A DNA stretch of 56,208 nucleotides. It comes from a virus. Its lineage: Duplodnaviria > Caudoviricetes. Shown in pieces: positions 124 to 51,239 of this stretch. A model generated the notes under the pieces. The model was not told the origin of the DNA. It did no database searches and saw only the letters and a program-made list of their open reading frames with translations. Position 1 is the stretch's first letter, and every line of letters starts with the position of its first letter. The DNA lies in the IMG/VR virus record IMGVR_UViG_3300017754_001331, positions 1 to 56,208 of that record. One strand, 5' to 3'. The translations under genes and the position numbers were made by a program.

Positions 124-1313
124 CGCGGATCGAGCAGGAACCCCGGATCGCCATCGACCTGCCGCATGAGATACTCATCGACCGCGTTGATCCGCGCAGA
201 GACGTTGTTGGTCTTGGCCGCCATGACGCGCAGCCCCTCAGCTTTGATAATGTCCACAGCACTGCGCTCGTCAGTCTGCGCTCGCTGAATACCCGCCGGG
301 TCGGTCACCACCATCACAGGCACACCCGAGAAGCGCTCGTATAGCAACGGTTTGAGTACGGTGCGGACGAACCTCTGGATACCCATGTCGAAGCTGACAG
401 CCTCGGCGAGGATGAGCGCACGCCCCCTCGGGTCCTGTTGTCCGATGACAGCCGCAGGCGTTAGCCCCAAGTCCATCCCGATTATGATAGGCCGCACCCC
501 GTTGACGATGGGCCTGAGCATCTGCTTGGCCATGTGGTAGTCCGGCCTGAAGTATTTGTACACAGGCTGACCAGCGGAGCTAAGGCCGTAGTCCCCGTCG
601 ATGAACACCCGGACATATTCTTCCGAGCGACCCTGCGTGTCGTAATAACCTTCGGGCAGGTTCTCGATATTCTCGGCGTAGGGACTGCGACCCGAAGGCT
701 GTTTGAACACATCCCAGCCATTGTCGTTGGCCGACACACCGTCCTTGGGGTCGAGCTTCTCGAACTGGTAGTACCACCATGTGTCCATCGTCGGCGGGTT
801 AGTATCTCCCCACATCCCATGCCATGTGGGTCCACCATCCTTGGCGGAAGGGAAACGTCCAACACGCTTTGACATGGCATCCACGATATCAGGGTGGATA
901 TCCCGGCACTCGTTGAACCATGCGAAGGTAAGTTCGAGCGAGTTCAGGTTGGCCACATCGTCAGCATCATCAAGCGCACGGAACATAATCTCGCACTCGA
1001 CATCGCCCACTTTAAAGAAATAAGTCTTCTTGGTCCGCAGCCATGTGCCACACTGCCCCGGCGGGAACCAGTCGAGGAAGGTCTTGATCGTGGTATCTTC
1101 CAGCTGCCGGGCTGTTTCACGGACCACCGCTGCGCGTGTCCGCCGTTTACCCGACTCATCAGGCTCCTGCATGGACGCCCGGCGTATGATCTCGAAGCAG
1201 CAGGTCACCGACTTGCCCGATCCGACCGGCCCCATGAGCGCACGCATCTTGGCATTGCTCGACATGAAGCGTTTGCCGGTAGGCGGCGGCGTATAATTGA
1301 TAGTTAAAGACAT
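1..1313 (-). CDS. terL: Terminase large subunit, N-terminal and major part (continues at 56085..56010; about 462 aa in total)
   Basis: Missing from the ORF track because it crosses the window edge. Hand translation from ATG 1313 gives MSLTINYTPPPTGKRFMSSNAKMRALMGPVGSGKSVTCCFEIIRRASMQEP...RTRAAVVRET with Walker A GPVGSGKS. The C-terminal nuclease end reads ...DKNKHSHIAEALQY. It lies downstream of a TerS-like gene and upstream of the portal. Confidence 0.93.
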   Translation of the reverse strand, partial: MSLTINYTPPPTGKRFMSSNAKMRALMGPVGSGKSVTCCFEIIRRASMQEPDESGKRRTRAAVVRETARQLEDTTIKTFLDWFPPGQCGTWLRTKKTYFFKVGDVECEIMFRALDDADDVANLNSLELTFAWFNECRDIHPDIVDAMSKRVGRFPSAKDGGPTWHGMWGDTNPPTMDTWWYYQFEKLDPKDGVSANDNGWDVFKQPSGRSPYAENIENLPEGYYDTQGRSEEYVRVFIDGDYGLSSAGQPVYKYFRPDYHMAKQMLRPIVNGVRPIIIGMDLGLTPAAVIGQQDPRGRALILAEAVSFDMGIQRFVRTVLKPLLYERFSGVPVMVVTDPAGIQRAQTDERSAVDIIKAEGLRVMAAKTNNVSARINAVDEYLMRQVDGDPGFLLDPRCTALKAAMMGGYRYKPKTDGMIDKNKHSHIAEALQYLCLH

Positions 1314-1316
1314 GGC

Positions 1317-1523
1317 TTAGTGTTTCATCCTGTCTATCTCATAGTCCTCGCGATTATCCAACGCGTGGTGGACCCATATGCCAAGGTCATCGTCGTCTTC
1401 GTCAGGTCTGCACCAGCATTCATTATGAAGCTCATGCTCTCGCAGGTCGTTTACCGGCACGATATGGGAGTGCCGCTCCCCGCACTCTTCGTAGATTATA
1501 GCCGCTGCCCAACCGAAACGCAT
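1317..1523 (-). CDS. Small His/Cys-containing hypothetical protein (possible metal binding)
   Basis: 68 aa with HIVPVNDLREH...CWCRP...VHHALD; tightly packed between TerS-adjacent ORF and TerL. Confidence 0.7.
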   Translation of the reverse strand: MRFGWAAAIIYEECGERHSHIVPVNDLREHELHNECWCRPDEDDDDLGIWVHHALDNREDYEIDRMKH

Positions 1524-1526
1524 GGC

Positions 1527-1679
1527 CTACCCCAATATCATAACGATATATTCAAGTCCGTGCTTCTTGGTCTTGATGATCTTGGTCCGGTAGGACCGGC
1601 CTTCTCCACGGAGTATATCCTCGGCAGTCGCAGCGCCGCCAGCGGTTTTGAACCTCAGACAGGGCGTGCCCTCAAACAT
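1527..1679 (-). CDS. Hypothetical protein (50 aa)
   Basis: ATG 1679 (MFEGTPCLRFKT...) overlaps the TerS stop; fills the operon gap. Confidence 0.6.
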   Translation of the reverse strand: MFEGTPCLRFKTAGGAATAEDILRGEGRSYRTKIIKTKKHGLEYIVMILG

Positions 1680-2175
1680 ACTCGTCGGAGTCAGCGTCAT
1701 CAATGTCATCGGCGTCAACCTCAATCACTCGTGGTGTCGCGTCTATAACCTTCATATCAGCTGGAGACGAGCCAAGGTTGATCATGATCTTCACGCCACC
1801 GACACTGGCGTTCTGCTCCTCGTTGTTTTTCGGTTCGAGGCCAGCCCACTTCACAGTGCTCTTGATCAGGTCGGCTTTTACGGCAGGTGACACTGCCGGG
1901 TCGTGGATCAACATATAACTTGTTGTCAGGAGTTCTTCCGCCTGTGCCCGCGCTTTGAGTCGGAACGTCAGTCCTTTCTCTTTCACCTCCTCGCGGTAGG
2001 TCTCCACGCGCTTGAGGAACACAGGGTCACGATTGAAAACCAAGAGGTGATTGGCGTCTATCCTGTGCCGATCCTTGATCTCGTCGAGGCTTTCCCCACT
2101 GCCCTCAAGGCATAGCGCTATGTCGAACGCGAGGCGGTCGGTCCATTTAGTCAGGTGTAGGGGCAGGCTGTCCAT
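1672..2175 (-). CDS. terS: Probable terminase small subunit
   Basis: 167 aa, first gene of the late arm upstream of TerL; helical N-terminus and a C-terminal GGVKIMINLG beta strand plus acidic tail typical of TerS. Assignment is mostly positional. Confidence 0.7.
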   Translation of the reverse strand: MDSLPLHLTKWTDRLAFDIALCLEGSGESLDEIKDRHRIDANHLLVFNRDPVFLKRVETYREEVKEKGLTFRLKARAQAEELLTTSYMLIHDPAVSPAVKADLIKSTVKWAGLEPKNNEEQNASVGGVKIMINLGSSPADMKVIDATPRVIEVDADDIDDADSDEYV

Positions 2176-2181
2176 CGGGGG

Positions 2182-2209
2182 ATGGTAGCATTTTGGTGGG
2201 GTCCGTCAA
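2182..2209 (-). promoter_or_regulatory. Sigma70-type promoter for terS (probably leaderless transcript)
   Basis: TTGACG-N16-TACCAT with a TGn extended -10; only 6 nt separate the -10 from the terS ATG, and there is no SD. Confidence 0.6.
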
Positions 2210-2215
2210 GATATC

Positions 2216-2285
2216 GCGTAACTATACACGTTTGTTTTTGGGGCGGCAAAATTTTTGGCGTAACTATACACGTTGCTTTTTGGGG
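2216..2285. repeat. Two direct repeats GCGTAACTATACACGTT-g-Y-TTTT-GGG
   Basis: Copies at about 2216-2243 and 2258-2285, each containing the TAACTATAC motif. Confidence 0.85.
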
Positions 2286-2405
2286 GTGTTGGATTGTGAG
2301 GTTTACTACACTACGGGGGGCCTAGCTTTCGCTAGTCCATGTGCCCCCCCCATGCGCGCCCACACGCGCACACACCCGCACGCACGCGCCTGCGCGCATT
2401 GGCCC

Positions 2406-2430
2406 CGAAACTTTACATTCATGCCGAATT
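2406..2430 (+). promoter_or_regulatory. Putative early promoter, copy 1 (CGAAACTTTACAT...CGAATT)
   Basis: 19/25 identical to the element at 3882-3906; contains a -35-like TTTACA; lies upstream of the first + strand gene. Confidence 0.55.
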
Positions 2431-2470
2431 AGGCGATAAAGAATAGGCCAAAGCGGAACACCGCCTCGGC

Positions 2471-2505
2471 GACGGGACGCATCCCACCCCGTCTGATCTT
2501 TGAAA
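2471..2505 (+). promoter_or_regulatory. Hairpin plus boxA-like antitermination element
   Basis: GACGGG/CCCGTC stem (2471-2493) directly followed by TGATCTTTGAAA (2494-2505), which resembles boxA (YGCTCTTT-A-A). Confidence 0.5.
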
Positions 2506-2535
2506 GCCTCGGGATAGGCAAACTGGAGACTTAGC

Positions 2536-2823
2536 ATGGCTAAGGTTTATGAAGGTCGTTTTGGCATCAAGGCCAACGGCAAGGGTGAAGTGGTTCTCGG
2601 CAAGCTCGTGGACGGCAAGTATACCGCAGATGATGCGGCAGCGGTTCACAAGCGTGTTCAGGCTCTGGCCAAGGAACACAAGCTGGTTGCTCGGGTTTTC
2701 AAACCCGACGCAAAGGGCACCGAACCGGTGATTCTCGCCGACAAGTGGGGAAATCCCTATCTTGCCCTACTCCCCAAGCGGGACGGCGTGGTCGCCAAGC
2801 GCAAGAGCGCTTACTTCGATTAA
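2536..2823 (+). CDS. Early hypothetical protein (95 aa, basic)
   Basis: GGAGA SD, ATG start, coherent composition. Confidence 0.8.
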   Translation: MAKVYEGRFGIKANGKGEVVLGKLVDGKYTADDAAAVHKRVQALAKEHKLVARVFKPDAKGTEPVILADKWGNPYLALLPKRDGVVAKRKSAYFD

Positions 2824-2830
2824 CCTCAAC

Positions 2831-2866
2831 GGGAGGGACGCAAGTCCCTCCCACCTTCTTGGAGAC
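2831..2866 (+). repeat. Intergenic hairpin-RBS cassette, copy 1
   Basis: GGGAGGGAC-GCAA-GTCCCTCCC followed by ACCTTCTTGGAGAC. Confidence 0.85.
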
Positions 2867-2870
2867 GCAT

Positions 2871-3014
2871 ATGTTCCATGTAGTTTGGTATGAAGGCTGG
2901 AGCGAGAACATCCACTCGTTCGACACTCACGAGCAAGCCGCTCAATTCATTCTCGACACGGGCATGGACCCGGACGAGTTCGATATCATGGAAGGCCACT
3001 TCCCTGACGTTTGA
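2871..3014 (+). CDS. Small acidic early protein (47 aa)
   Basis: MFHVVWYEGWSENIHSFDTHEQAAQFILDTGMDPDEFDIMEGHFPDV after a GGAGA SD. Confidence 0.75.
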   Translation: MFHVVWYEGWSENIHSFDTHEQAAQFILDTGMDPDEFDIMEGHFPDV

Positions 3015-3019
3015 AACCA

Positions 3020-3055
3020 GAGAGGGACGCGAGTCCCTCTCACCTTCTTGGAGAC
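3020..3055 (+). repeat. Intergenic hairpin-RBS cassette, copy 2
   Basis: GAGAGGGAC-GCGA-GTCCCTCTC followed by the same ACCTTCTTGGAGAC; compensatory change relative to copy 1. Confidence 0.85.
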
Positions 3056-3059
3056 AATC

Positions 3060-3149
3060 ATGAAGCAGTTGTTTGAAGCTACCCTAGTTGCTCTTGGCAC
3101 AGCCCTATTCGTGGTCGGCATCTTCGGCCTATGGGCAATGTCCCACTAA
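3060..3149 (+). CDS. 29-aa single-TM microprotein
   Basis: MKQLFEATLVALGTALFVVGIFGLWAMSH; GGAGA SD; followed by a terminator; below the ORF-track cutoff. Confidence 0.7.
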   Translation: MKQLFEATLVALGTALFVVGIFGLWAMSH

Positions 3150-3155
3150 CTCCCC

Positions 3156-3188
3156 ACCCCACTGGCTCCGGCTGGTGGGGTTTCTTTT
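3156..3188 (+). terminator. Rho-independent terminator
   Basis: ACCCCACTGGC-TCCG-GCTGGTGGGGT stem followed by TTCTTTT. Confidence 0.8.
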
Positions 3189-3759
3189 CGCCTGCGGCGC
3201 GTAACTGTCGGGCATAGCCCTCCCATACGTCGGGGGTTTATAGCTGTGCTAACGCCGTTATCATGCACTATGTAGGGGGGCTGTATAGTTATATCAGAAA
3301 TGTGTATAGTTGCATCAATACTTGTAATAAAATCAATAACTTAATTTTTAAATAATATACTTTTTTTGGAATCGGCCTAACTTTACATTGTTAGGTAACT
3401 ATACAAACTATACGTATAGTTTGGCAAAAAGCCACGGAAATCCAAGGATTATTCTTACTCTATCTATTCTAAGTGATATAAATAATATAAAAAATATAGG
3501 AAAAAATTGAATAGGTCGCGAAATGTTTTGACCCCTGTGGATAACTTTTCTAAATACGTGTATACTTCCCAATAATCTCCCCTCCTTACCCCCCGCGCAG
3601 CTTATTATTCCCAAAAACCTATATTATTTATATCATCCGTTATATTTCAAGCACTTACAGTAGATTATTTGGCTAACTATACTATATCATTGCGATCTGT
3701 ATACTTACAACTTTATCGTGGTTTATCAAACATTTATCACTAACTATACACAATCTAAT

Positions 3760-3819
3760 TAAATTTCAAACACGTTTTTATTTTGATTTTAAATTTCAAA
3801 CACGTTTTTATTTTGATTT
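3760..3819. repeat. Perfect 30-bp tandem repeat x2 (third variant copy at 3936-3964)
   Basis: TAAATTTCAAACACGTTTTTATTTTGATTT at 3760-3789 and 3790-3819; 29-nt copy with one mismatch at 3936-3964. Confidence 0.95.
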
Positions 3820-3881
3820 AGCCCTAACTATACGCTCTGCCGCGTCTCGCCGAAAAACTCAACAAAATCAACGGCTTGCGG

Positions 3882-3916
3882 CGAAACTTGACATCCCCGA
3901 CGAAATCGACCAAACT
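3882..3916 (+). promoter_or_regulatory. Putative early promoter, copy 2
   Basis: CGAAACTTGACATCCCCGACGAAAT; TTGACA-N17-CAAACT; upstream of the long + strand operon. Confidence 0.6.
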
Positions 3917-4000
3917 CGGAGCCGAGCCGCCAAACAAATTTCAAACAAGTTTTTATTTTGATTTGGTTGTTCAGTTACCCACTATATAGGAGTGATGGCA

Positions 4001-4282
4001 ATGAGCCGGACCAAAGTATACACCAGATTTGCTGACCTTACAGACATCTATACACCACGTTTCAACCCCATAACTATACGTCCTATACGCCGTCATTATC
4101 TGTCGGCTTCTGATGCAGTGTATGATTTCACCATTGGTCATGACTTCGCTGTCAGTGACCACAACTCCCCTTTCCATGGCTGCCTGATATCGGTTCTGGA
4201 TAAGCGGACCCTTATTCAACATGGCTATACCCATGCCACCATCAGCTACAACTATGACCGTGAAGTGGAGATCAAGCTGTGA
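4001..4282 (+). CDS. Early hypothetical protein
   Basis: AGGAG SD at 3988; resembles small phage early proteins with an R-x-Y-x-S...D-F...G-x-D-F pattern. Confidence 0.7.
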   Translation: MSRTKVYTRFADLTDIYTPRFNPITIRPIRRHYLSASDAVYDFTIGHDFAVSDHNSPFHGCLISVLDKRTLIQHGYTHATISYNYDREVEIKL

Positions 4283-4554
4283 ATTATATGGAACGTAATA
4301 TCGAACTGTCTATCGACGCTGACCACCATGTCGAGATGGCTGAGATCACTGGTAACAAGGAACTGTTCGCTACCATCGGCTATCTGAGCCAGTGGAATAT
4401 GAACCTGAAGAAGGTCCGTATCTGTGGTGGTGTCTATGACGGTAATCCTGAGCTTATCGCTACCTATTGGAGACATGATACCACTGAGCCGCAGCCTATT
4501 GCCTATCAGATCGGTGCTGTCTGGCACGGTGATCACTTTGGTTTCCACAGTTAA
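4279..4554 (+). CDS. Early hypothetical protein (91 aa)
   Basis: GTGA overlap with the upstream gene; GGAG SD. Confidence 0.75.
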   Translation: MNYMERNIELSIDADHHVEMAEITGNKELFATIGYLSQWNMNLKKVRICGGVYDGNPELIATYWRHDTTEPQPIAYQIGAVWHGDHFGFHS

Positions 4555-4616
4555 GCCGAAACAGGGACTACGGTCCCTGTCCAGTGGGGTGGTCCCCTAC
4601 TGCTGATGAGGCAGCC
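4555..4616 (+). ncRNA. Type II hammerhead ribozyme
   Basis: GCC-GAAA-[CAGGGAC-UACG-GUCCCUG]-UC-[CAGUGGGG-UGGUC-CCCUACUG]-CUGAUGA-GGC. All core nucleotides (CUGAUGA, GAAA, GUC cleavage triplet) and stems I, II and III are present, and the element is intergenic. Confidence 0.9.
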
Positions 4617-4638
4617 CCCTCTACCGATGGAGACAGCA

Positions 4639-4983
4639 ATGTCTAAGAAATCTACTCGTGTATCTGGCTGGAAATGCCGGACCTATGTCCAGAATAAGGA
4701 ACCATTCCACAACTCCAACAAGCAACTCTATGGGCAGTGGGTGACCAGTGACCGCTATGTAGTGTATAGTTACGGTGCTCACTGGCCGTTGCTGGTATGG
4801 GATGACACTGTCCAGCGTTGGTTCGGGAACTATAACAAGACCAGCCGGACCACTACCAAACATGCCAGTCAGACTCATCCCCTGACCGATCTCCACCCTC
4901 TGTCACTGCAACAGATACAGGTCTTGGCAGAGCGTGGTTACCAGACCTTGGCAGCTAACCGGATAGGAGGGTTTCAGCCGTGA
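4639..4983 (+). CDS. Early hypothetical protein (YVVYSYG...KTSRTTTKH family)
   Basis: GGAGA SD; the YVVYSYGxHxP...SxTTxKH pattern recurs in phage early genes. Confidence 0.8.
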   Translation: MSKKSTRVSGWKCRTYVQNKEPFHNSNKQLYGQWVTSDRYVVYSYGAHWPLLVWDDTVQRWFGNYNKTSRTTTKHASQTHPLTDLHPLSLQQIQVLAERGYQTLAANRIGGFQP

Positions 4984-5207
4984 GACAGGATATATTCAGA
5001 ACCGTAACTGAGTTGTTAGACAGCCGTGACTGCGTGATAATGGGCAATGCCGTCAATAATGAGGGCAAACTATACGATGACAGTGTCGAGAACCTCAATG
5101 CACTGCGGATGTTGGAGCCATCACTGCGTGAGCTTGTGGCTATCTGTGAAGCGGAGGGTATCCAAGCGATAGCTCTGTATGAAATTATCGAACTTATAGG
5201 GGAGTGA
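4980..5207 (+). CDS. Hypothetical protein (75 aa)
   Basis: GTGA overlap; GGAGG SD. Confidence 0.65.
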   Translation: MRQDIFRTVTELLDSRDCVIMGNAVNNEGKLYDDSVENLNALRMLEPSLRELVAICEAEGIQAIALYEIIELIGE

Positions 5208-5208
5208 T

Positions 5209-5790
5209 ATGAACATCGACCTTATTGAGAAACACCGTGATATCAACACTGAGCACTTTGACTGGTGGGACTGCACCTATGACCACTTCGCAGAGGATAT
5301 GCTGGCCAAACATATCACTGTGGACAAGATGCTTTTCAGTGGCTTCTGGTGTCAGGGGGATGGTGCATCGTTCACTGGCCATATCACCAACAGCAAAGCG
5401 TTCATGGAAACCCATGACCTGACAGAAACCTATCCATGGGTGACAAAACTGCTAGCCGCAGGGGGTGATTTCGATCTGCGTATCGAGCGGACTAGCCATC
5501 ACTATGTCCATGAGAACACTGTCAGCGCTGATATCGCTTCCGCTGATATGTTCTGTAATTTGCTGGATAGTGACGAGTTCCGTGACCTGATTACCACTCA
5601 GTGGGATAAAAACCTCGACAAGGAATATGACCAACTTGAGAGCCATGTCACCGAGATCATACGGGACTATTGCGTGGACCTCTACCGCCGACTCGAAAAG
5701 GAATATGATTACCTGACCAGCGATGAAGCTGTGTGGGATGCCATAGTGGCAAACGACCTCGACGTTATCGAGGAAATGGAGACTGCATAA
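5209..5790 (+). CDS. Acidic protein of the FSGFWxQGDGA family (often labelled antitoxin-like)
   Basis: Motifs FSGFWCQGDGASF and LYRRLEKEYDYLTSDEAV; strongly D/E-rich. Confidence 0.75.
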   Translation: MNIDLIEKHRDINTEHFDWWDCTYDHFAEDMLAKHITVDKMLFSGFWCQGDGASFTGHITNSKAFMETHDLTETYPWVTKLLAAGGDFDLRIERTSHHYVHENTVSADIASADMFCNLLDSDEFRDLITTQWDKNLDKEYDQLESHVTEIIRDYCVDLYRRLEKEYDYLTSDEAVWDAIVANDLDVIEEMETA

Positions 5791-6074
5791 TGGAAGAAAC
5801 TGTAATCAAACGCGGCATTGAGCCGGTGATGATCCGTGTTGGTGGTGCTGAAGTCAATGGTGACAAGGTGGTTCGAGTAACCATCAACATCTTTTCCCGT
5901 GATGGACAGACTACCAGCGATATCGATCTAGCTACGGCTAGCTTTGTCCATGCTCAGGAGTTGTTCACTGCGCTGGATAGGCTGACTGACCTGACTTCAG
6001 AGGGTGACCCCGAAATGCGGGATGCTCTCGAAGAAGCACAAGAACTTATCAACGACATTCGGAGGTATTGGTAA
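5790..6074 (+). CDS. Hypothetical protein (94 aa)
   Basis: TAATG coupling with the upstream gene; GGAGA SD. Confidence 0.7.
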   Translation: MEETVIKRGIEPVMIRVGGAEVNGDKVVRVTINIFSRDGQTTSDIDLATASFVHAQELFTALDRLTDLTSEGDPEMRDALEEAQELINDIRRYW

Positions 6075-6244
6075 TGCGTTTATTTGCCCTTCGACGACAG
6101 AAGCGGGGGCCGCTGGTCACCGACCAGTTTGGTGAAGTGATTTACCACGACAGTAAGATGGATGCCAAGCGACATCGGGATCGTTTGGCTCGTGGTGCCG
6201 TTGTTACATTTGGTCCCGACCACAAGCTATACACAGGAGAATAA
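6074..6244 (+). CDS. Hypothetical protein (56 aa, basic)
   Basis: MRLFALRRQKRGPLVTDQFGEVIYHDSKMDAKRHRDRLARGAVVTFGPDHKLYTGE; TAATG overlap and GGAGG SD; not in the ORF track. Confidence 0.7.
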   Translation: MRLFALRRQKRGPLVTDQFGEVIYHDSKMDAKRHRDRLARGAVVTFGPDHKLYTGE

Positions 6245-6248
6245 GTTT

Positions 6249-7244
6249 ATGCGTGCAGAACTTCTAAAGGGAACGCTCAAAGCACTGTTCAACATCCAAC
6301 GCACTGTCTGCATCATCGGCCCTCCCGGCGGTGGTAAGACAACCATTGTCCACGAAGTAGGCAACGAACTCGATGTTCCTGTCATTGTCCGCCATATGCC
6401 AACGGCTCTGGTCGAGGACTTTGGTGTGCCTGATATGGGCACTAGTGATGCGTCATTCAGCTACAAGCTACCTGACTGGTTCCCCTACAAAGGCAAGCCG
6501 GGCACTGAGCGCGGTGGTATCCTGTTGTTCGATGACCGTAACCAAGCAGGTCCTGACCTCCAGAAAGTGCTAGCCAATATCTGTCAGGCTCGTGAGTTGC
6601 ACGGTGTCCCCATGGCTGATGGCTGGCAGGTTGTCTCCACTGGTAACCGACAGTCAGACCGTGCTGGGGCAGTGCGTATCCTGAGCCATCTGGCTAACCG
6701 TGAGACCACACTAGAGTTTGAGACCGACCTTAACGACTCGACCAAGTGGATGCTGGACAATGCAGTCAAGCCAGAGGTGGTTAGCTTCATCCGCTTCCGT
6801 CCCGGCCTGTTGCATGACTTCGATGCCCAACGTGACCAGAACCCTACACCTCGCAGCTGGGTCGAAGGTGTCTCCGATGTGCTTGGTGCTGTGCCTTTCG
6901 AGGCTGAGTATGAGTGCTTCAAGGGTGCTGTTGGCGAGGGTGCAGCGGCTGAGTTTGTCGGTTTCATGCGGATATGGCGCAAGTTACCCAACCCTGATGC
7001 TGTGCTTATGAACCCGTCAACTGCGGACGTGCCGACCGATCCGGCTACGCTCTATGCCTTGTCTGGTTCACTTGCTGCACGGATCACTGACAGCAACATG
7101 GACCGTGCTGTTACCTACGCCGAACGTATGCCTGCTGAGTTCTCTGTGCTTATGATTAGCCAAGCAGCACGGCGTGACCCTGACCTGACCACGACACAAG
7201 CGTTTGTTAAGTGGTCTTTGGCGCATCAAGATGTACTTTTCTGA
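6249..7244 (+). CDS. MoxR-like AAA+ ATPase
   Basis: Walker A GPPGGGKT, Walker B variant GILLFDD, sensor TGNR, NPTPRSW; AGGAG SD before ATG 6249. Confidence 0.88.
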   Translation: MRAELLKGTLKALFNIQRTVCIIGPPGGGKTTIVHEVGNELDVPVIVRHMPTALVEDFGVPDMGTSDASFSYKLPDWFPYKGKPGTERGGILLFDDRNQAGPDLQKVLANICQARELHGVPMADGWQVVSTGNRQSDRAGAVRILSHLANRETTLEFETDLNDSTKWMLDNAVKPEVVSFIRFRPGLLHDFDAQRDQNPTPRSWVEGVSDVLGAVPFEAEYECFKGAVGEGAAAEFVGFMRIWRKLPNPDAVLMNPSTADVPTDPATLYALSGSLAARITDSNMDRAVTYAERMPAEFSVLMISQAARRDPDLTTTQAFVKWSLAHQDVLF

Positions 7245-7452
7245 GGCTAAAGCCGCAGGCGAGTGGCTGGAGTTTCTGTGGGAGCACCAGCCACATAAGC
7301 GCTTGGAATTACAACACAGACGTGTCCAGTTAATACGGCGTGACACCAAAAGAGCAGCCATGGATAGGCTGGAGACCTTAGCCATGCAGTATCCCCAAGA
7401 CTATCTCGTTTTCAGAACCCGGCAGCGTTTGCTGGGCAAAAGTGGAGTGTGA
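7231..7452 (+). CDS. Hypothetical protein (73 aa)
   Basis: ATG 7231 overlaps the AAA gene end; fills the operon gap. Confidence 0.55.
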   Translation: MYFSEAKAAGEWLEFLWEHQPHKRLELQHRRVQLIRRDTKRAAMDRLETLAMQYPQDYLVFRTRQRLLGKSGV

Positions 7453-7455
7453 ACT

Positions 7456-8307
7456 ATGAAACTCAATGACCGTGCCCTTCTCGTCAGCCTGTCCATATCA
7501 CAGTGGACGGCTCGTAAACTTGACAAGAAAGCGACCAAGGATGTCGCTGACATTAACCGGGCAAGCACCAGTGCAGGACGCTACAACAAGTCTCTGCTTC
7601 CTCTCAATGATCTGTTGGCCAACGTGCATCAGAAAACCGGTGTGATCCGTGAGAAATTCGCCAAGAACACCCTGCCTTGGGGTATCGACGGCACACGCAT
7701 CCTACCCAGTGCCAACTATCTCCAGTTCATGCAGGATTTCCGTAAGGAAAAGGCCGAGTGGCAGACGCTGGTCACGACATTCCTCGACAACTATGAGTAT
7801 CTGGTAGCTGAAGCCAAGCGCTGGCTGGGTGATCTGTACGATGAGAAGGACTATCCCAGCAAGGACAGCATCACTGGTAAGTTTAACATGGACATGGCGA
7901 TCCTGCCTGTACCCAGCAATGACTTCCGTGTGGCGCTATCCAGCGATGAGTTGACCCGCATCCAAGAGGACCTCGAAAGCCGCATGACCAGTGTGCAGCA
8001 AGAGGCGATGAACGATTGCTGGCACAGACTATACAAGCATGTAGAACATATCACCGAGAAGCTGTCCGACCCCAAGAATATATTCCGGGACAGTATGCTC
8101 GACAATGCAAGGGAGACATGTGACCTACTGACACGTCTGAATATAACAGAGGACCCGAACCTCGAATCCATGCGGCAAGCGGTGGAGCGCAAGCTGTTGG
8201 ATCATCACCCTGATACACTGCGTAATGACTTCGATGTCCGTCAGGATACCGCAGCAGAAGCGCGCAAAATCATGGACGCAATGTCCGTATTCATGGGAGC
8301 AAACTAA
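7456..8307 (+). CDS. DUF3150-like helical protein
   Basis: LLVSLSISQWTARKLD...TLPW...G.RILP...YPS...KF pattern; family found with AAA/vWA pairs. Confidence 0.7.
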   Translation: MKLNDRALLVSLSISQWTARKLDKKATKDVADINRASTSAGRYNKSLLPLNDLLANVHQKTGVIREKFAKNTLPWGIDGTRILPSANYLQFMQDFRKEKAEWQTLVTTFLDNYEYLVAEAKRWLGDLYDEKDYPSKDSITGKFNMDMAILPVPSNDFRVALSSDELTRIQEDLESRMTSVQQEAMNDCWHRLYKHVEHITEKLSDPKNIFRDSMLDNARETCDLLTRLNITEDPNLESMRQAVERKLLDHHPDTLRNDFDVRQDTAAEARKIMDAMSVFMGAN

Positions 8308-9452
8308 TGCAAGTTGCAGTCAAGAAACGTGCTTATGAGGGCGACATCACCGCCCTCAACCGCCGTCTGGCCAAGGCCAAGACATCCCTCATCCTTGAGC
8401 ATCCCTTCGTCGGGACCATCGCTCTCAACATGCCGTTCATACTAGACGAGTCTGTCTCCACTGCGGCAACCAACGGCAAGTATGTCAAGTTCAACCCGGC
8501 TTTCATCGACCCGCTGTGTGACGAACAGCTTAAGTTCCTCGTGGCTCATGAGTGCTTTCACCCCATGCTGGAGCACAACTATCGGCGCGGTGCGCGTGAC
8601 CAGAACCGCTGGAACAAGGCCGCTGACTATGTGATCAACGAGTTGCTGACACGAGAAGGGATCGGCAAGTTCATCCAAGGCGGCTGCCTCGATCCCAGCC
8701 TGTACAACGCAGGCAATGGGTCCACAGAGGGCATCTATAACCTGTTGCCTGATGAGGACGATGACAGCGGTGGCGGTGGCGGCGAAGCCTATGATGACTG
8801 CCTTGATGCAGATGGTGGCCCAGCTGAACAGGCACAGGCCGCTGCCGAGATGAAAGTGCAGGTCGCTCAGGCAGCACAGGCTGCCAAGATGATGGGTAAA
8901 CTGTCTGCTAACATGCAGCGTCTGGTCGATGAGGTACTTCAACCCAAGGTCAACTGGGCCGATGTCATGTGGCGGTTCATGCAGAAGGCTCGTAACGATA
9001 GCCGGACCTTTGCCCGTCCCAACAGGCGGTTCATATCGCAGGGTATCTATCTGCCCAGCGTGTCCGGCGAGACCATGGGTGAGATGCTGTGGGCCGTTGA
9101 CTGTTCCGGTTCAATCACACCACAACAGATCAGTCAGGCAGCGGCTGAGGTGACCAAGGTGTTCGAGCACTTCCGTCCTACCAAACTGCATGTTGTCTAC
9201 TTCGATAGCGAGGTGGCTCATGCCGAGGTCTATGAACCCGGTGACGTGCTGGATATCAAGCCGCATGGTGGTGGCGGCACTGCGTTTAGCCCAGTGTTCC
9301 GCTACGCTGAGGAGCATGGCATCGAGCCTGTTGCCTGCATATTCCTGACCGATCTGTATTGCTCCGACTTTGGTCCGGAGCCTGACTACCCCGTGCTTTG
9401 GGTCAGCGATGGCGCTGAGAAGGCACCCTTTGGAGAAGTGATCAAATGGTAA
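8307..9452 (+). CDS. DUF2201-type metallopeptidase-like domain plus vWA domain protein
   Basis: AATNG...HECFH (HExxH)...WNKAADYVIN; acidic Gly linker; MIDAS DCSGS, GGGTAF, FLTDLY. Confidence 0.88.
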   Translation: MQVAVKKRAYEGDITALNRRLAKAKTSLILEHPFVGTIALNMPFILDESVSTAATNGKYVKFNPAFIDPLCDEQLKFLVAHECFHPMLEHNYRRGARDQNRWNKAADYVINELLTREGIGKFIQGGCLDPSLYNAGNGSTEGIYNLLPDEDDDSGGGGGEAYDDCLDADGGPAEQAQAAAEMKVQVAQAAQAAKMMGKLSANMQRLVDEVLQPKVNWADVMWRFMQKARNDSRTFARPNRRFISQGIYLPSVSGETMGEMLWAVDCSGSITPQQISQAAAEVTKVFEHFRPTKLHVVYFDSEVAHAEVYEPGDVLDIKPHGGGGTAFSPVFRYAEEHGIEPVACIFLTDLYCSDFGPEPDYPVLWVSDGAEKAPFGEVIKW

Positions 9453-18785: not shown

Positions 18786-21647
18786 ATGGACATAACAACA
18801 TTTTTAGAGAGGGTGCTCCCACCGGAAGGTGTGTACGTCAGTGCACAGCTGACCCCAAGAGGGATGATCCACAAGTTCTACGACTCGGTAGAAGACCTAG
18901 CAGTAGCAGCACAATCGGCAAGCCAGCGGGGAGGTAACGTATATTACGCCGTCTCCTCAATGCAGGACAACTCAGAGCGCAGTCAGCGCAACACCCACCT
19001 TACCCAGACCCTGTTCATCGACGTGGACTGTGGCCCAGATAAACCTTACGACACATGGAAGGACGGGCTACTCGCCCTCAGTCAGTTCATCGCTGACCTG
19101 AAGCTACCCAAACCTATGATCGTGCACTCCGGCAACGGCCTGCATGTCTACTGGGTACTGGCCGAAGCGCTTGCGCCTGCGCAGTGGGGACCACTGGGTC
19201 TCGCACTCAAGGCAGCAGCCAAGGCGAAGGGCTTTGCAATCGATATGAGCGTGCCGGGTGACAGCGCCCGGTTGCTTCGACCTGTAGGCACCATCAACCC
19301 GAAGGGCGGGGCCGAGGTCAAACTGTTGATCGACGCACCGATGGTCGATGCTGACACACTGCGCAATGCGCTCAGTGGATTTATCGTCAACACAAGCGTT
19401 GCAGGTATTAGTAGTCCGTTCGGCGGTTCAACACGCACAAGCATGTTGTCACAAGCTCTCTCTACCGACAGCGAGTTCCCAGACGCCAACCCGGATGCCG
19501 TCGCATCCAAGTGCCAACAGATCAAGTGGGGCGTCGAGAACCAGAAGGAAGTCAGTGAACCGTTCTGGTACGCCATGCTGGGTGTCGCTGCCTTCTGCAT
19601 CGATGCTGAGAACACGGCAGTGTCATGGTCCAACCAGCACCCAGACTTCGAGCGCAGCCGCACCGTCCGCAAGATGGAGCATTGGAAGCAGTCGGTCTCT
19701 GGTCCTGCCACCTGTAAGAAATTCCTAGAGGAGCGCCCCGCAGGATGTAAGGGGTGCAAGTTCGCCGGTAAGATCACAGCGCCGACGCAGATCGGCACAC
19801 AGTTCAGCGCAATCGAAATATCCGAAACGGCTCCAGATAAAGTCGGTGCCGCAGTACCGATGCCACGGAGTTACAAGCGCACTTCATCGGGCATCAAGCA
19901 GACTGTGGATGGCACTGACATCGATATCTGCCCGTTCGATATCTACCCCGTTGGGTACGGCAGGGACGAAGCACTCGGGTATGAGACCGTCCGCTACCAC
20001 TGGGACCGCAAACACATGGGGTGGCAGGAACTGTCACTCCGACAAGCATACCTCACAGACACACGTCTACGTGAGTTCACAACCGCCGTCGCTGATCAGG
20101 GGATCGTCCTCAAAACAGAAAAACAAACCGCGAGTTTTCAGTTTATGCTTCGCACCTACATGGACAAGCTGCGCGAGATGCGCGCAATGACCAACCTCTA
20201 TAACAGCATGGGCTGGAAGGATGACTACAAGCAGTTCGTCCATGGCAACACGCTGCTCCGCAGGCTCGAAGACGGCACAGTCGTCGAAGAGAACATCACT
20301 CTGTCCTCGGGCAGCCAACGTCTGGGCGGTGAGCTTTACGGCACCGCTGGCACCGAGCAGGGATGGATCGACTTCACCTCGGTACTGCAAGCTGCCAATA
20401 TGCCAGCGCAGATGTTCGCGTTGGGGTTCAGCCTCGCCACACCCATGATCGAACTGACCGGCCTCAACGGCCTCACGCTGTCGCTGTCTGGGCAAACAGG
20501 TACTGGTAAGTCTCTGGCCCAATTATGGCAGCAGTCCCTGTGGGGTGATCCGCAGAAGCTACACTTCGCAGCCAAGTTCACGATGAACAGTCTGTACAAC
20601 CGGCTTGGTTTCTACTGCAACCTGCCAATGACCATCGACGAAGCCACGGTGGTGACAGATAAAGAGGTCGGTGACTTCCTGTACATGGTCACACAGGGCC
20701 GGGACAAGACCCGCCTGAGCCGCTCGGCAGAGGAGCGGGAGACCAAGCGTTGGGCAACCAGCGTGACGATCTCGACCAACATCCCGTGGGCTACCAAGCT
20801 GGCTGCCATGAGCAGCGCTACAGATGCACAGATGATGCGCCTTCTAGAAGTCACAGTCGATCCACACCCCGTCTTCGCAGATGGCACCACAGGTGGCCGC
20901 AAGATATTCCAGTTCATCACGGGTAACTATGGCTGGGTCGGACCCCGGTTCGTCAAGCACCTGCTTGCCTTGGGACCTGTCGCGATCAAGGAGATGATCG
21001 ACGAAGCGATGACCACATTTCCACAGAGATATCCTGCCGAGTTCAGCGGTGAGGAACGCTACTGGGAAATCGCTATCGTGCTGACTGACTTGGCACTGCG
21101 CATAGCTAAAGAACAAGGCTGGATTAAGTTCGATCCGGCCATGGCCATCCGCTGGGTACTCCAACAGACCGGGACCATCAGGGAGAACATCGCTGCCAAC
21201 AAGATGGACAGCTTCGATATCTTCTCAGAATATCTCAGCGACAACACCAGACTTGCGCTCACGGTCATGCACACGGCCAGCCAGCCACCGACCCCATTGT
21301 TCAACCGGATGCCGCAGGGCGAGGTCAGGATACGGTACGACATTCGACGTAACCAACCGAACGGTGTCTTCGACCATGGCACTGTGATGGTAGACCGGAC
21401 GCACTTCCGTAGTTGGTTGGCAACCCACCAAGTGGATTACCGCCAGCTTGTCCGGGACCTTGAGGTTGAGAACATCGTCATCCCGGTGAAGAACAACAAG
21501 GCGTATCTGGGTAAAGGAACCGACATCAAGATGGGGCAGTCCTATGTGGTCCAGATCAACCTCTGCCACCCGAGACTGCGTGGTATTCTCGACGAAGCTG
21601 ATCAGGCATTCGACACGCAAGTGCTCGGGCAGTTGAAAGTTATTTAG
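18786..21647 (+). CDS. AEP/RepB-like primase fused to a Cys-rich domain and a DUF927-type helicase
   Basis: FIDVD, HSGNGLHVYW, DSARLLRPVGT; C...C...CKGC cluster; Walker A GQTGTGKS, Walker B TIDE. Confidence 0.88.
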   Translation: MDITTFLERVLPPEGVYVSAQLTPRGMIHKFYDSVEDLAVAAQSASQRGGNVYYAVSSMQDNSERSQRNTHLTQTLFIDVDCGPDKPYDTWKDGLLALSQFIADLKLPKPMIVHSGNGLHVYWVLAEALAPAQWGPLGLALKAAAKAKGFAIDMSVPGDSARLLRPVGTINPKGGAEVKLLIDAPMVDADTLRNALSGFIVNTSVAGISSPFGGSTRTSMLSQALSTDSEFPDANPDAVASKCQQIKWGVENQKEVSEPFWYAMLGVAAFCIDAENTAVSWSNQHPDFERSRTVRKMEHWKQSVSGPATCKKFLEERPAGCKGCKFAGKITAPTQIGTQFSAIEISETAPDKVGAAVPMPRSYKRTSSGIKQTVDGTDIDICPFDIYPVGYGRDEALGYETVRYHWDRKHMGWQELSLRQAYLTDTRLREFTTAVADQGIVLKTEKQTASFQFMLRTYMDKLREMRAMTNLYNSMGWKDDYKQFVHGNTLLRRLEDGTVVEENITLSSGSQRLGGELYGTAGTEQGWIDFTSVLQAANMPAQMFALGFSLATPMIELTGLNGLTLSLSGQTGTGKSLAQLWQQSLWGDPQKLHFAAKFTMNSLYNRLGFYCNLPMTIDEATVVTDKEVGDFLYMVTQGRDKTRLSRSAEERETKRWATSVTISTNIPWATKLAAMSSATDAQMMRLLEVTVDPHPVFADGTTGGRKIFQFITGNYGWVGPRFVKHLLALGPVAIKEMIDEAMTTFPQRYPAEFSGEERYWEIAIVLTDLALRIAKEQGWIKFDPAMAIRWVLQQTGTIRENIAANKMDSFDIFSEYLSDNTRLALTVMHTASQPPTPLFNRMPQGEVRIRYDIRRNQPNGVFDHGTVMVDRTHFRSWLATHQVDYRQLVRDLEVENIVIPVKNNKAYLGKGTDIKMGQSYVVQINLCHPRLRGILDEADQAFDTQVLGQLKVI

Positions 21648-24600
21648 TAGGACAGGGCGTCGAACGCCTTCTCGATATCCTCGCGGCCAGCTTTGGGGGT
21701 AGTCCTCAGCATTCGCTCCTTGGCGGGTCGCTGGGCTTCCTTCAGAGCACGCTGCGAACGGCGGCGGAAGTCGGCGATCTCAAGACCAGTGCCCTTAGCA
21801 CCCTTGTTCCACTCATCCACTGCGTCCTCGATGTCTCGGGCGCGGCCAGTGTCGCCTTCCATCGTGGCCTTGATCCATGCCTGACGGAAACCTGCCACAA
21901 CATCTCGCTGATAGTCGGTCACGCGGGTAGCGACGCGGATCGCGCTATACTGTTGTGCCGCTTCGCTAGGATAGAACCCAAGCAAACGAGTGGCGATAAC
22001 TCCAGCATTGGCTTCGTCAGCCACAACATACCCACGGCGGTCGACGATGGCATCGGACTTGGCGTAAGCGACAGCATCACCGGCTGCACGGAGCATGGTC
22101 ACCGGAGCCTCACGAGCCACATCGATCAGCTGGATACGGTCGGAGAACGGTACGCGCATCAGGTCAGCGAAGAACTGAGCCGAACCCAGCAGGGCGGACG
22201 GAGCAGGACCAGCGATGTCAGTAAGTTCGCGGCCAACATCAGCGCCCGACAGGAGGATGCCAGTGCCGGGGAACAGGTTACCGATGGAGACACGACCAGC
22301 GATATCAGCAGGCACTGCCGAGTTCACCACACCTTGCAGGAAGTAAGGCGACATGCCGGGGAAGACACCGTCGATGAACTTGGCGATCTCCATGCGGATG
22401 CTGCCGACCTTGAACCCAAGAGCCTGAGCCAGTGTGTCGATCAAGTCCTCAAGGTCCTCGGCGAACGGTAGACCCTGCAAGCCAGAGAGCAGCCACAAAG
22501 ATGCCAGCATGGCGATCTTACCATTGCGCGACATGTTTGAGAACAGCTGGATCGAGGTGGTCGGGAAGACCTTGTACATGTACAGGAAGGACTGGATACC
22601 CGAACGCCATGCCGGAGGACGGTTAAGCACTGAGTACTCACCCATCGTTAGGCTTAGAGCATCGACGGCGAAACGCCGTGCTGCGTCTTTTGCCTTGGCC
22701 TCGCTGCGACCACCGGCAATCTGGCGCTCATACTCAAGGCGATAGGCAGCCAGACCCAACGTGCGGCGAGATGCCTGCTCCGTAAGGTTAAACGGCAGCA
22801 TCCAACCATCGATAAATTTGCGTGCGAAGCCAGACGATATTTGCCCACGGGCAGTGTTGATCAGCGCGTTGGTCTGCGCCGGGATCATGGCACCCTCACG
22901 GATTTCTCGTGCGATGAACTCAGCCTCGTGCACTGCCAGTCCATACTTATCCTGAAGCTGCTTGCTCTTGGCTACCTCATCATAGAACTCAGCCGTGTTG
23001 GCTTTCATGTTGGCGATACCCAGAGCACCGACCTGCTTGGCAGCGATGTGGAACTGAGCAACCGAGGGACCGATCCCGAAGCCACCGCCGAAGCCATTGC
23101 TAGGATTGTAGCTGGCGAGGAACGGCAAGCCGTTGGTGTACGCACTGATCAGGTTGAGCGCACCCGTAGCGATAGAACCACCAAGCTGCATGATGCTGGT
23201 GGCAGCACGGACCTGCGAGACAACCTCACCACTTTCGAAGTTGGACTCGGTCACGCTGCGGTTATCGTCGAGGAACGACACGGTACGAGATGCTTCATTG
23301 TAGAACTGGTTCGTCCGCTTGGGCTTACCCTTCGGATTGGTCTGATCGTACATGAACTTGTACCGCTCGTACTCACGCTGGGCGAGAACACGCTCATCAG
23401 GCGACAAGTTGGTGTTTTCTGCTGCGGCCTTGAGTTCAGCCAGCAAACGAGCGTCACCATTCCACAGGCGCTGGGTCGACTCCATGCTCAGGTTCATCAG
23501 TTCGCTCAACTGCGGACGCATCATGGTCTTGGAGATGGTCGAAGCACGCGAGTCGATATGCCGCGAGATCGCTTTGATGGCATCCGGATCAGCGCCGGGA
23601 GTGAACGCACGCAGTAGTCGGTTACGAGCTGAACTGTTCTGCTTGGTCAAGGCAGTGACCACACGCTCGACTTCCTTCGGAGTCAAAACAATATCAAGCT
23701 GACGCAAACCATACACAAACTCGTTGAGGTTTAGTTCCGGAGGACCGGCGATGGCGTCGAGTGCGGTCTCAGGTACAGCCCGGAAGACCACGTTCTGCTT
23801 GACGAAGTCACCACTCTCTTGGCTGTATGCGTCGACCTCGTAGGTCTTATCCTTAAAGATATTGTTGATGCCAGCGGCGATCTGCTGTGCCTCGCTCTGC
23901 TTCTCCACCTGTGAGTAGATAAGCTGTTCGCGATAGGCATCAGCCAGACGGACGACCTTACCCGTGCGCGGGTTAACCGCCTCGACACGGACTTGGAACT
24001 GACCTTCACGCAGCAACGGAGTATAGCCAGTGGCCAGTGTGCGGCGGGTGTAGAGGTCAGCGTCAGCGTTCGATACCTCCAGCATCAGGATTTGCTTCAC
24101 CCGGTTCTGGATGGTGAACTTGTTGTCGGCCCCGATCTTCAGTCGTGTACGGAACTCACGCAGCTTGGCGACCATATCGTCAGCCATTCTGCCTTCGAAG
24201 AACCGCGCAACCTCATTGAAGTCCCGGTCCTGACCGAGGGTCAGTGCCTTGTTGATAGCCACGACGAAGTCGTTACCGTTCTCCATGGCTTCAGCGTTGA
24301 GCTTGGGATAGCCGCGCTCGTCGAAGGTAATATCCGCCGTGTAGAGATCGTTATAGGTCTTGATGATGCGGCGCAGCAAGTCACGCTCGGCACCGGTCAG
24401 GCGCTTGTTCTCCACCAATTCGTCGAACTGCTTGAACGCGATCTGCTGGTCTTCGAACAGGCTCTGGTAACGGGCACGCAGAAGCTGAAGTTCCACATCG
24501 TTGACCGTCTCACGCAGGCTGAGATATCCACGCCACTCGATGCTCTGCTTGGTAAGACCGGGGATACCAGCGAAACGCTCATCCCGCGTGGTTCCGTCAG

Positions 24601-50312: not shown

Positions 50313-50330
50313 ATCTCTATCCTATGTTGA

Positions 50331-50350
50331 TGGGGGCGCGAAGCCCCCAC
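50331..50350 (-). other. Intergenic stable hairpin
   Basis: GTGGGGGC...GCCCCCAT around TTCG on the - strand; no U-tract. Confidence 0.55.
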
Positions 50351-50353
50351 CGT

Positions 50354-50668
50354 TTACGCCGGGGTGACTGCGTTAGAGCCGTCAGCACGAACCCAAGTCG
50401 AGTTGGCGTTGGCCCCTGTTGCAATCATCAGGCGACTGTTAGTCGTATCGAACACGATGGTTCCGGCAGCCTTGCCGGTCGTATTCACTGCATTGCCGAT
50501 AGCACCGATCTCAGCAGCCGTGTTAGTGCGAAGCTGGATATAACCAGTGGTCGCATCAACATTGCCAGTGAGCGTGCCGCCAAGCGTAGCGCCGGACAGC
50601 GTGACGTTATAGAGCGTGCCGCCCTGAATGGTCACATTGTCCTGAGTAATACCGCGATAAACACCCAT
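50354..50668 (-). CDS. Small structural protein (head decoration/fibre-base-like)
   Basis: Thr/Gly/Asn-rich; AGGAGG SD; follows the capsid decoration gene. Confidence 0.75.
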   Translation of the reverse strand: MGVYRGITQDNVTIQGGTLYNVTLSGATLGGTLTGNVDATTGYIQLRTNTAAEIGAIGNAVNTTGKAAGTIVFDTTNSRLMIATGANANSTWVRADGSNAVTPA

Positions 50669-50673
50669 GATAA

Positions 50674-50732
50674 CCTCCTAAGAAGGAGGGGCTGCCTTCC
50701 GACCGGGAACCCCCAATCCAGCCAGCAGCCCC
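50674..50732 (-). promoter_or_regulatory. Structured intergenic RNA element overlapping an SD-sequestering hairpin
   Basis: GGGGCTGC/GCAGCCCC stem with an inner stem and G-rich loop, followed by CCTCCT-TCTT-AGGAGG. Confidence 0.5.
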
Positions 50733-50738
50733 AAACTA

Positions 50739-51191
50739 TTAAGCGCAGTTAGCGACGATAGCCCATGCCTTCACAACAGCGTTGGCCGGAACCGCCGTAT
50801 TGAGAAGAATGTCAATGGTGTCAGCCGTCTTGATAACCGTGGGGTTAGCAAGGTTGTCCGAGTCCATTGCTACAGCGTTCGATGCGAAGTCATCGCAGTA
50901 GACGTTGGCAGCGGCAGGCGAACCACCGGTATAACCGAAGTCGAACGTCGCGGTCGTGTTGGTCGTTTCCGCCGAGACGACGTTCAGACCAGCAGCGAGA
51001 ACTACCGAGTAAGCCGGGAGGTTGATAACCTGAAGGGTATCGGTAGCAGCCAGAGCCGTAGCACCAGCAGCAGCACGCGCTGCGACAATCGCAGCAAAGT
51101 CGAGTTCGACTTCAAACTTGTAGACACATGCAGTGTCCGGATACGCAGCGGTACCCTTATTGAAGCCGAGAGAGTCAGTATAAGCAGCCAT
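50739..51191 (-). CDS. Capsid decoration/cement protein
   Basis: 150-aa beta-rich protein directly after the MCP (DTLQVINLPA..VV...ADTIDI). Confidence 0.72.
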   Translation of the reverse strand: MAAYTDSLGFNKGTAAYPDTACVYKFEVELDFAAIVAARAAAGATALAATDTLQVINLPAYSVVLAAGLNVVSAETTNTTATFDFGYTGGSPAAANVYCDDFASNAVAMDSDNLANPTVIKTADTIDILLNTAVPANAVVKAWAIVANCA

Positions 51192-51211
51192 CTTTAAATC
51201 CTTTCGAGCAA

Positions 51212-51235: not shown

Positions 51236-51239
51236 AAAA

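Follow-up and report, generated by a model that had tools for sequence, protein, structure and literature searches.

An intact type II hammerhead ribozyme is present on the plus strand of IMGVR_UViG_3300017754_001331, a complete virus record with direct terminal repeats which was analysed over its whole length of 56,208 bp (the window). The element occupies positions 4554 to 4620, between two small open reading frames (ORFs). A cmscan search against Rfam matched this interval to RF02276 (Hammerhead_II) at 46.0 bits, above the gathering score of 37, with an E-value of 2.7e-6; the match is full-length (model positions 1-66) and is the sole gathering-level RNA-family match in the 56.2-kb window. 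The one other Rfam match at E<=1 in the window is IRES_Bip (E 0.28), which was judged meaningless, and no tRNA genes were found there. We regard the assignment to the type II hammerheads as secure. An initial annotation had placed an intact type II hammerhead at 4555-4616 and had named a search with the Rfam hammerhead models as a check; the sequence is exactly as it was quoted, and the search bears the proposal out. The parts of the ribozyme are as follows.

4554..4620, plus strand: type II hammerhead ribozyme (full RF02276 match; minimum free energy fold)
4555..4557, plus strand: stem II 5' strand GCC, adjoining the TAA at 4552-4554 and pairing with G4610-C4612
4558..4560, plus strand: core G12 A13 A14, unchanged in all seven orthologous variants
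4561..4580, plus strand: stem III hairpin, A15.1-U16.1 plus 7 bp with a C-G closed UACG loop (A4561-C4568 with G4573-U4580)
4581..4582, plus strand: predicted cleavage site between C17 (4581) and C1.1 (4582), from where GUC falls in the Rfam consensus
4582..4602, plus strand: stem I hairpin, 8 bp with one G.U, loop UGGUC at 4590-4594 (C4582-G4589 with C4595-G4602)
4603..4609, plus strand: core C3 U4 G5 A6 U7 G8 A9 (CUGAUGA), unchanged in all seven variants
4610..4612, plus strand: stem II 3' strand GGC, pairing with 4555-4557
4613..4616, plus strand: 3' tail AGCC, of which G4614-C4616 can pair with G4591-U4593 of loop I (pseudoknot)

From the TAA stop onwards the RNA reads GCC GAAA, a UACG-capped 8-bp hairpin, GUC, an 8-bp hairpin with the loop UGGUC, CUGAUGA, GGC and AGCC. 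Every nucleotide of the hammerhead core is present, that is C3 U4 G5 A6 N7 G8 A9, G12 A13 A14, the pair A15.1-U16.1 and a non-G at position 17, and both the Rfam alignment and the fold give the type II permutation, a three-way junction in which loops cap stems I and III and stem II is open. The core, the UACG-capped stem III, the 8-bp stem I and the open 3-bp stem II thus agree with the initial annotation, as does the cut predicted after C4581 of the GUC, which is right by the Rfam consensus position. The 67-nt RNA 4554-4620 takes the canonical three-way junction as both its minimum free energy (MFE) and its centroid fold, at an MFE of -30.1 kcal/mol. Since this stability is unexceptional (z -1.93; 12 of 200 shuffles were equally stable), it is the covariance-model score and conservation that carry the case.

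Natural type II hammerheads with a pseudoknot between loop I and the tail were described, and found active, by Perreault et al. 2011 (PMC3088659). The class is already known and abundant in phages, and the present element is one more member of it, genuine but ordinary. With RF02276 it has in common the full core, the capped stems I and III, the open stem II, a candidate loop I-tail pseudoknot and an intergenic site in a phage. It differs from the class in its stem II of 3 bp, where the Rfam consensus has 2 bp (one inserted base in the Rfam alignment), and in its pseudoknot of 3 bp, where most type II members have 4 bp or more (PMC3088659). This pseudoknot, between GGU of loop I and the 3' GCC, had been put forward in the initial annotation; the pairing exists, but it amounts to 3 bp including one G.U, while relatives have 4-5 bp.

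Related loci were collected by searching viral contigs with both flanking proteins and by an alignment of the upstream protein, which gave 24 contigs carrying the upstream gene and one extra locus (L008) with a distant homologue of the downstream gene and nothing more. A hammerhead stands at the same place in 8 of the 24 contigs, so that the synteny which the initial annotation had asked for in related phages is found. At the level of loci, 9 of the 16 scanned (corresponding to the 8 contigs) carry a gathering-level Rfam hammerhead, each directly after the stop of the upstream gene; with RF02276 the scores of the syntenic relatives run from 37.5 to 54.5 bits. The other seven scanned loci have no hammerhead and show a short plain spacer in its place, for instance 16 nt from stop to start in L012 and L013; thirteen further loci, ten more distant relatives among them, gave no Rfam match at E<=0.1. 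A whole-record search found one copy each in all four complete genomes carrying the element (the window and three related ones), which speaks against paired ribozymes excising a segment, and two incomplete related records have no hammerhead, the syntenic site being present and empty. A second ribozyme yielding a circular or spliced product was considered and discarded, as the window has none at E<=1 and each complete genome holds a single hammerhead. In a maximum-likelihood tree of the upstream protein the ribozyme-bearing loci group together, with the ribozyme-free L012 and L013 nested beside the window and L010 (support 86/88); built on 90 columns and with weak support, this tree is suggestive of one gain and one loss.

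Seven distinct ribozyme sequences, that of the window included, are found at the locus. CUGAUGA, GAAA and GUC are unchanged in all seven, and each sequence when folded alone forms stems III and I. Counting pairs outward from the core in the sequences' own folds, two-sided changes occur at 1 of 3 positions in stem II, 4 of 6 in stem III and 6 of 6 in stem I; pairing in this count is given by construction, and its information is that differing sequences fill the same helices. The second pair of stem II covaries from C-G to U-A in L017 and L018. The pseudoknot covaries as well, being GGU:GCC in the window and L002, GGUU:GACC in L005, UGGUU:AGCCA in L014, UGGU:GCCA in L015 and UGACC:GGUCA in L017 and L018. 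A covariance model was also built from the seven sequences and the pairs were counted on the fitted alignment against 500 shuffles. Paired cells made up 81.5%, versus 67.5 +/- 2.2% in the shuffles, nine pairs showed two-sided change where 4.6 were expected, and the covariation score was 0.429 versus 0.186, none of the 500 shuffles reaching the observed value in any of the three; model fitting and the relatedness of the sequences inflate these pairing and covariation figures. Slid registers of the same alignment all remained at or below 46.8% paired. By helix, 7 of the 8 pairs of stem I and 1 of the 3 of stem II changed on both sides, and stem III is low (61.7% paired) because variation in its length (6-8 bp) and in its loop (3-7 nt) leaves it misaligned. 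The compensatory changes, taken with the invariant core over seven variants, show that a fold competent for cleavage has stayed under selection.

The closest comparison is with L010, from which the window differs at about 1% of positions over 3279-5200, and 11 of the 30 differences fall within the 16 nt of stem III. This stem has been swapped whole, AGGGAC-UACG-GUCCCU at 4563-4578 of the window standing against GCCCUG-AAC-AGGGC at 3285-3298 of L010, both perfectly paired. Another difference between the two exchanges a G.U for a G-C pair in stem I. As regards the donor of the window's stem III variant, no exact match other than the window's own was found in the viral contigs or in the 171 loci. 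A different kind of exchange is seen between L017 and L018 (about 3150-3480), where 176 of 177 aligned positions are identical through the upstream gene and the ribozyme, similarity stops directly past the tail of the pseudoknot, and the genes beyond differ. Here the ribozyme travels with the upstream gene, its 3' edge coinciding with a mosaic junction.

The 3-bp-stem-II subtype was also sought by a pattern search of viral contigs; this subtype alone was sampled, and the counts are of unique sequences, not of independent events. It occurs in at least 119 viral-contig stretches. Among the matches listed, to which the following counts all refer, in 110 of 122 unique copies a sense frame of at least 60 codons has its stop no more than 20 nt before the ribozyme, which holds for 72 of 650 random positions and, on the antisense strand, for 20 of 123; 94 of the 110 are 0 to 4 nt from the stop by script count. 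Downstream, 97 of 123 copies have within 60 nt a start opening a frame of at least 60 codons (238 of 620 in controls). No paper stating this adjacency of hammerheads to stop codons was found in open-access text. In the same set, six hammerheads of the subtype lie within 4.4 kb in L066 (IMGVR_UViG_3300036851_000550) and three within 1 kb in L032, arrays of gene-by-gene punctuation such as were described by Perreault et al. Among deposited phage genomes, Dulem virus 39 (PP511791.1) has three type II hammerhead matches at 49653-51926, scoring 59.2, 53.7 and 32.7 bits, of which the third falls short of the cut-off; the highest-scoring one sits between two annotated coding sequences with no feature annotated there, a reminder for annotation that hammerheads go unannotated in deposited phage genomes.

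In the window, the plus strand carries every sizeable ORF between about 2536 and 21647, among them a DNA polymerase, an exonuclease, a helicase, a primase and an Nmad5 protein, while the minus strand encodes portal, tail, internal-virion and terminase genes. The ribozyme is thus sense to the early or replication arm, "early" being a label given to the region from its position. It comes after two small genes, 3992-4282 and 4279-4554, the first past an A+T-rich non-coding stretch. The immediate surroundings are the following.

4279..4554, plus strand: upstream ORF of 91 aa without a known family, its C-terminus ...IGAVWHGDHFGFHS being conserved (ORF list; Pfam, PHROGs and PDB sequence searches)
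4629..4632, plus strand: GGAG ribosome-binding site, 6 nt 5' of the ATG at 4639 (sequence)
4639..4983, plus strand: downstream ORF, 114 aa, weak match to phrog_19962, function unknown (PHROG search)

This placement, directly after the stop of 4279-4554, sense to the flanking genes, ahead of the ATG of 4639-4983 and with 57 nt from 4582 to that ATG, is the one given in the initial annotation, which had further described the downstream genes as anti-host and as encoding AAA and VWA proteins. The AAA ATPase (6162-7244) and a DUF2201 metallopeptidase/VWA-like protein (8307-9452) are confirmed; the anti-host description is not supported, since 4639-4983 has no more than the weak match above, to a family of no known function. 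The ATPase is AAA_5-like (phrog_1297) and forms with 8307-9452 a MoxR/VWA-like pair about 1.5 kb past the ribozyme. The AUG within CUGAUGA, which opens an in-frame ORF (4606-4983), was considered as an alternative start and rejected: it has no ribosome-binding site, and the AUG of the L016 counterpart, its frame counted by eye, is out of frame.

The reading we consider probable is that of a functional cis-acting type II hammerhead which serves as a processing or insulating element between cistrons. On this model the element would be transcribed within the plus-strand early or replication block of this complete 56.2-kb uncultivated tailed phage. Closure of stem II, with its 5' strand beside the stop codon and its 3' strand after CUGAUGA, together with the short pseudoknot, would lead to self-cleavage between C4581 and C4582. 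The cut would detach 3992-4282 and 4279-4554, which together form a two-gene leader module, from the mRNA of 4639-4983 and later genes. The upstream product would end in the stem III hairpin followed by a single 3' nucleotide, C, bearing a 2',3'-cyclic phosphate, and the downstream product would begin with a 5'-OH at a nucleotide already paired in the 8-bp hairpin of stem I, 57 nt before the start codon. Since loops close stems III and I in the type II topology, both products would carry a hairpin at the new end, and the predicted products are hairpin-terminated. Hairpin-bearing ends of this kind would resist 3' exonucleases and the 5'-monophosphate-dependent entry of RNase E or J. The two mRNA segments would then probably decay independently, and their translation contexts might be uncoupled as well. 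The identity of the motif, its intact core, the preservation of its structure in evolution, its sense orientation and its site from stop codon to ribosome-binding site are established; cleavage in vivo and an effect on stability or expression are what we infer. Stabilisation of the downstream mRNA, as suggested in the initial annotation, is plausible; for bacterial and phage hammerheads the hypothesis has already been published (PMC3088659, restated in PMC6765202).

Several observations weigh against this model. Sixteen of the 24 related contigs have no ribozyme, among them L012 and L013 with an upstream protein 85% identical, and the element is clearly dispensable in relatives. No such ribozyme was found in the nearest cultured phages, Pseudomonas phages KPP25 and phiR18 and Rhizobium phage RHph_TM3_14A, which are about 37% identical in DNA polymerase; in GenBank phages the window has no DNA-level match and the upstream protein no tblastn match. 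Four RNA-type runs (X17-X20) searched over 3500-6500 gave no contig across 4549-5160. X17, which is probably DNA, gave a 40-nt partial piece at 4509-4548, and an identical 249-nt contig at 3966-4213 came from two metatranscriptomic runs of one sample and is indistinguishable from DNA carry-over. Runs from the habitats of this phage are of freshwater, wetland and soil. Searches of the flanking proteins against Pfam, PHROGs and PDB sequences gave nothing usable for function, which leaves no reason to offer for differential expression of the two genes. In the folds predicted for longer contexts the 5' strand of stem II and G12-A13 pair with the upstream Phe-Gly-Phe codons. The 3-bp pseudoknot with its G.U and the 3-bp stem II may both slow the ribozyme, since a shortened pseudoknot is reported to make cleavage 20- to more than 100-fold slower at 0.5 mM Mg2+, a longer stem II having a slowing effect too (PMC3088659).

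A rather unlikely alternative is that the hammerhead is a neutral or selfish portable module of about 70 nt, which cleaves itself without benefit to the phage and spreads or hitch-hikes by recombination at gene boundaries. Presence and absence are clean among close relatives (8 of 24 contigs), the ribozyme-free L012 and the ribozyme-bearing L014 have a similar downstream junction, the subtype is widespread in viral contigs with up to six copies in 4.4 kb (L066), and the homology of L017 and L018 ends exactly past the pseudoknot tail; the neighbouring genes vary, as Perreault et al. also state (PMC3088659). The compensatory changes and the invariant core over seven variants speak against such neutrality, and the protein tree is better matched by a single gain and a single loss than by repeated insertion, suggestively given its 90 columns and weak support of 86/88. 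Phage genomes are, moreover, compact and tend to shed useless sequence, and we know of no mechanism of mobility at the DNA level for single hammerheads. That the element is not catalytic at all, its hairpins being a terminator, an attenuator, or an RNase III or protein-binding site with an incidental likeness to the hammerhead, is very improbable. The unexceptional stability of the fold would suit it, and stem III shares the 6 bp AGGGAC/GTCCCT with hairpins at 2834 and 3023, with different loops (three matches to this stem versus 0.12 expected, for a pattern picked after sight of the matches). Hairpins alone, however, need neither an invariant CUGAUGA, GAAA and GUC nor a covarying stem II and pseudoknot, and the stem III sequences are quite different among relatives. 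The window reads CUGAUGAGGCAGCC 3' of stem I with no T-run after the element, and a scan of 1300-7500 listed no terminator-like site at 4555-4620. RNase III substrates need about two helical turns, or a stem of about 20 bp as in the T7-like case, and the stems here, at 8 bp each, are far shorter.

Catalysis might instead be conditional, cleavage being gated by a ribosome at the abutting stop codon or by the hairpin UUUGGUUU : AAGCCGAA, so that processing would be tied to translation of the upstream ORF; this we think improbable. At 4537-4560 the Phe-Gly-Phe codons UUUGGUUU can pair with AAGCCGAA, which is the end of the stop codon with the 5' strand of stem II and G12-A13. In favour of gating, the stop codon adjoins stem II directly, in 65 of the 110 frame-following viral copies among the matches listed the stop ends 0 or 1 nt before CCGAAAC, which puts its end at the 5' strand of stem II or one base inside it, and the competing hairpin is the predicted MFE state of L005, L017 and L018 as well as of the 5' product and of a 181-nt context of the window. 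Tight spacing of the stop is, however, expected from genome compaction alone. For 128 viral hammerheads among the matches listed, the 30 nt upstream show no greater complementarity to the ribozyme's 5' part than do sequences 30-150 nt further up (mean -4.7 versus -5.0 to -5.1 kcal/mol; Wilcoxon p 0.19-0.33), and with no enrichment in these copies a dedicated competing hairpin was rejected as a general hammerhead feature. The competing complementarity in the window is probably incidental, because the Phe-Gly-Phe codons are conserved in ribozyme-free relatives too. A further proposal, of our own and at present improbable, is that the hammerhead is a cassette of about 70 nt which is gained, lost and exchanged with precision in the gap from a stop codon to the ribosome-binding site that follows it, acting both as a processing signal coupled to termination of translation and as a recombination linker. 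It draws on the stop adjacency (110 of 122 among the matches listed), on the breakpoint of L017 and L018 at the 3' edge of the pseudoknot, and on the replacement of a whole stem at about 1% flank divergence. If true, hammerheads would be conserved linkers at which phage gene modules recombine, in addition to processing signals coupled to translation termination.

Processing between cistrons, the reading preferred here, has parallels in known systems. In phage T7 the early mRNA is cut between cistrons by RNase III, a host protein enzyme acting on long double-stranded stems, and RiboJ is an engineered ribozyme insulator derived from a satellite-RNA hammerhead. The analogy with both is one of function only, a cut in a polycistronic or variable 5' region giving defined, hairpin-bearing ends to messages, whereas the element of the window is a natural self-cleaving type II motif with stems of 8 bp. 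Another case is that of the haloviruses HF1 and HF2, where a hammerhead variant lies 13 nt before an early helicase gene and a mapped transcript 5' end is no more than 3 nt from the cleavage site (PMC3088659); this variant, HHphage, is also mentioned in PMC7230728. Both are virus hammerheads of an early region, upstream of a gene in a polycistronic early transcript, and the 5' end of the HHphage transcript suggests processing in vivo. HHphage differs in being a core-variant ribozyme of an archaeal virus, located before a helicase, with neither sequence nor synteny in common with the locus studied here. In Desulfovibrio vulgaris three type II hammerheads, at least one of which (loc 1) is beside phage-derived genes, cleave in vivo, and cyPhyRNA-seq caught both cleavage fragments from total RNA (PMC8782182). 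Those ribozymes are of the same type but are located on a bacterial chromosome. In prophages type II hammerheads are often placed around genes and were proposed to cut long phage transcripts into mRNAs of operon or gene length (PMC3088659); there they flank genes in multiple copies, whereas here there is one copy per genome. Processing by self-cleavage, as proposed in this work, is hence the standard hypothesis in print (Perreault 2011) and is not new.

The initial annotation had combined the ribozyme with hairpin cassettes and boxA into an RNA processing system for early genes. The cassettes exist, two of them, intergenic, at 2833-2866 and 3022-3055. They are 34 nt each and 94% alike, with a GNRA-capped hairpin GAGGGAC-GCAA/GCGA-GTCCCTC followed by CACCTTCTTGGAGAC and then the start codon; L010 and L016 also have one such hairpin. 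BoxA fared less well: the scan with the E. coli consensus gave four matches at up to 2 mismatches versus 3.09 expected, with none near the element, so there is no enrichment of this consensus. A strong terminator-like hairpin is located on the plus strand at 3156-3181 (within 3156-3190), directly after a small ORF ending at 3150; it has 11 bp, seven of them G-C, and a T-run, and it suggests that the plus arm has more than one transcription unit. Its 3' side is followed by a non-coding stretch, A+T-rich and filled with repeats, at about 3200-3990. Within these roughly 800 nt ahead of 3992-4282, a 30-nt A+T-rich direct repeat is present three times (in tandem at 3759 and 3789, and again at 3934), and this region, 3759-3963, looks like an origin or regulatory region.

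The 9-mer TAACTATAC occurs in nine copies (seven on the plus and two on the minus strand), all of them between 2219 and 4772, while 0.11 would be expected in the window. Two of the copies are inside 28-nt repeats (2216-2243 and 2258-2285) at the start of the plus arm, and the motif may be a phage promoter or a regulator-binding site. Further downstream, the gene 5209-5790 (193 aa, phrog_5162, function unknown) has 85% DNA identity to L010, as compared to 97-98% in its flanks, and is locally fast-evolving or exchanged. On the minus strand, ORF 21644-29629 encodes 2661 aa. PHROG matches are confined to approximately 500 C-terminal residues and are to families of very large proteins without assigned function; a giant protein of the virion, or one that is ejected, is the probable identity.

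The hammerhead of the window is a well-documented natural example of a class whose biological role in phages is undefined. Its lineage supplies natural controls, namely the same junction with and without the ribozyme, a stem replaced as a whole and a breakpoint at the edge of the ribozyme. If the two mRNA segments are indeed uncoupled in a ribozyme-dependent manner, this would support the long-standing idea that phage hammerheads process polycistronic transcripts.

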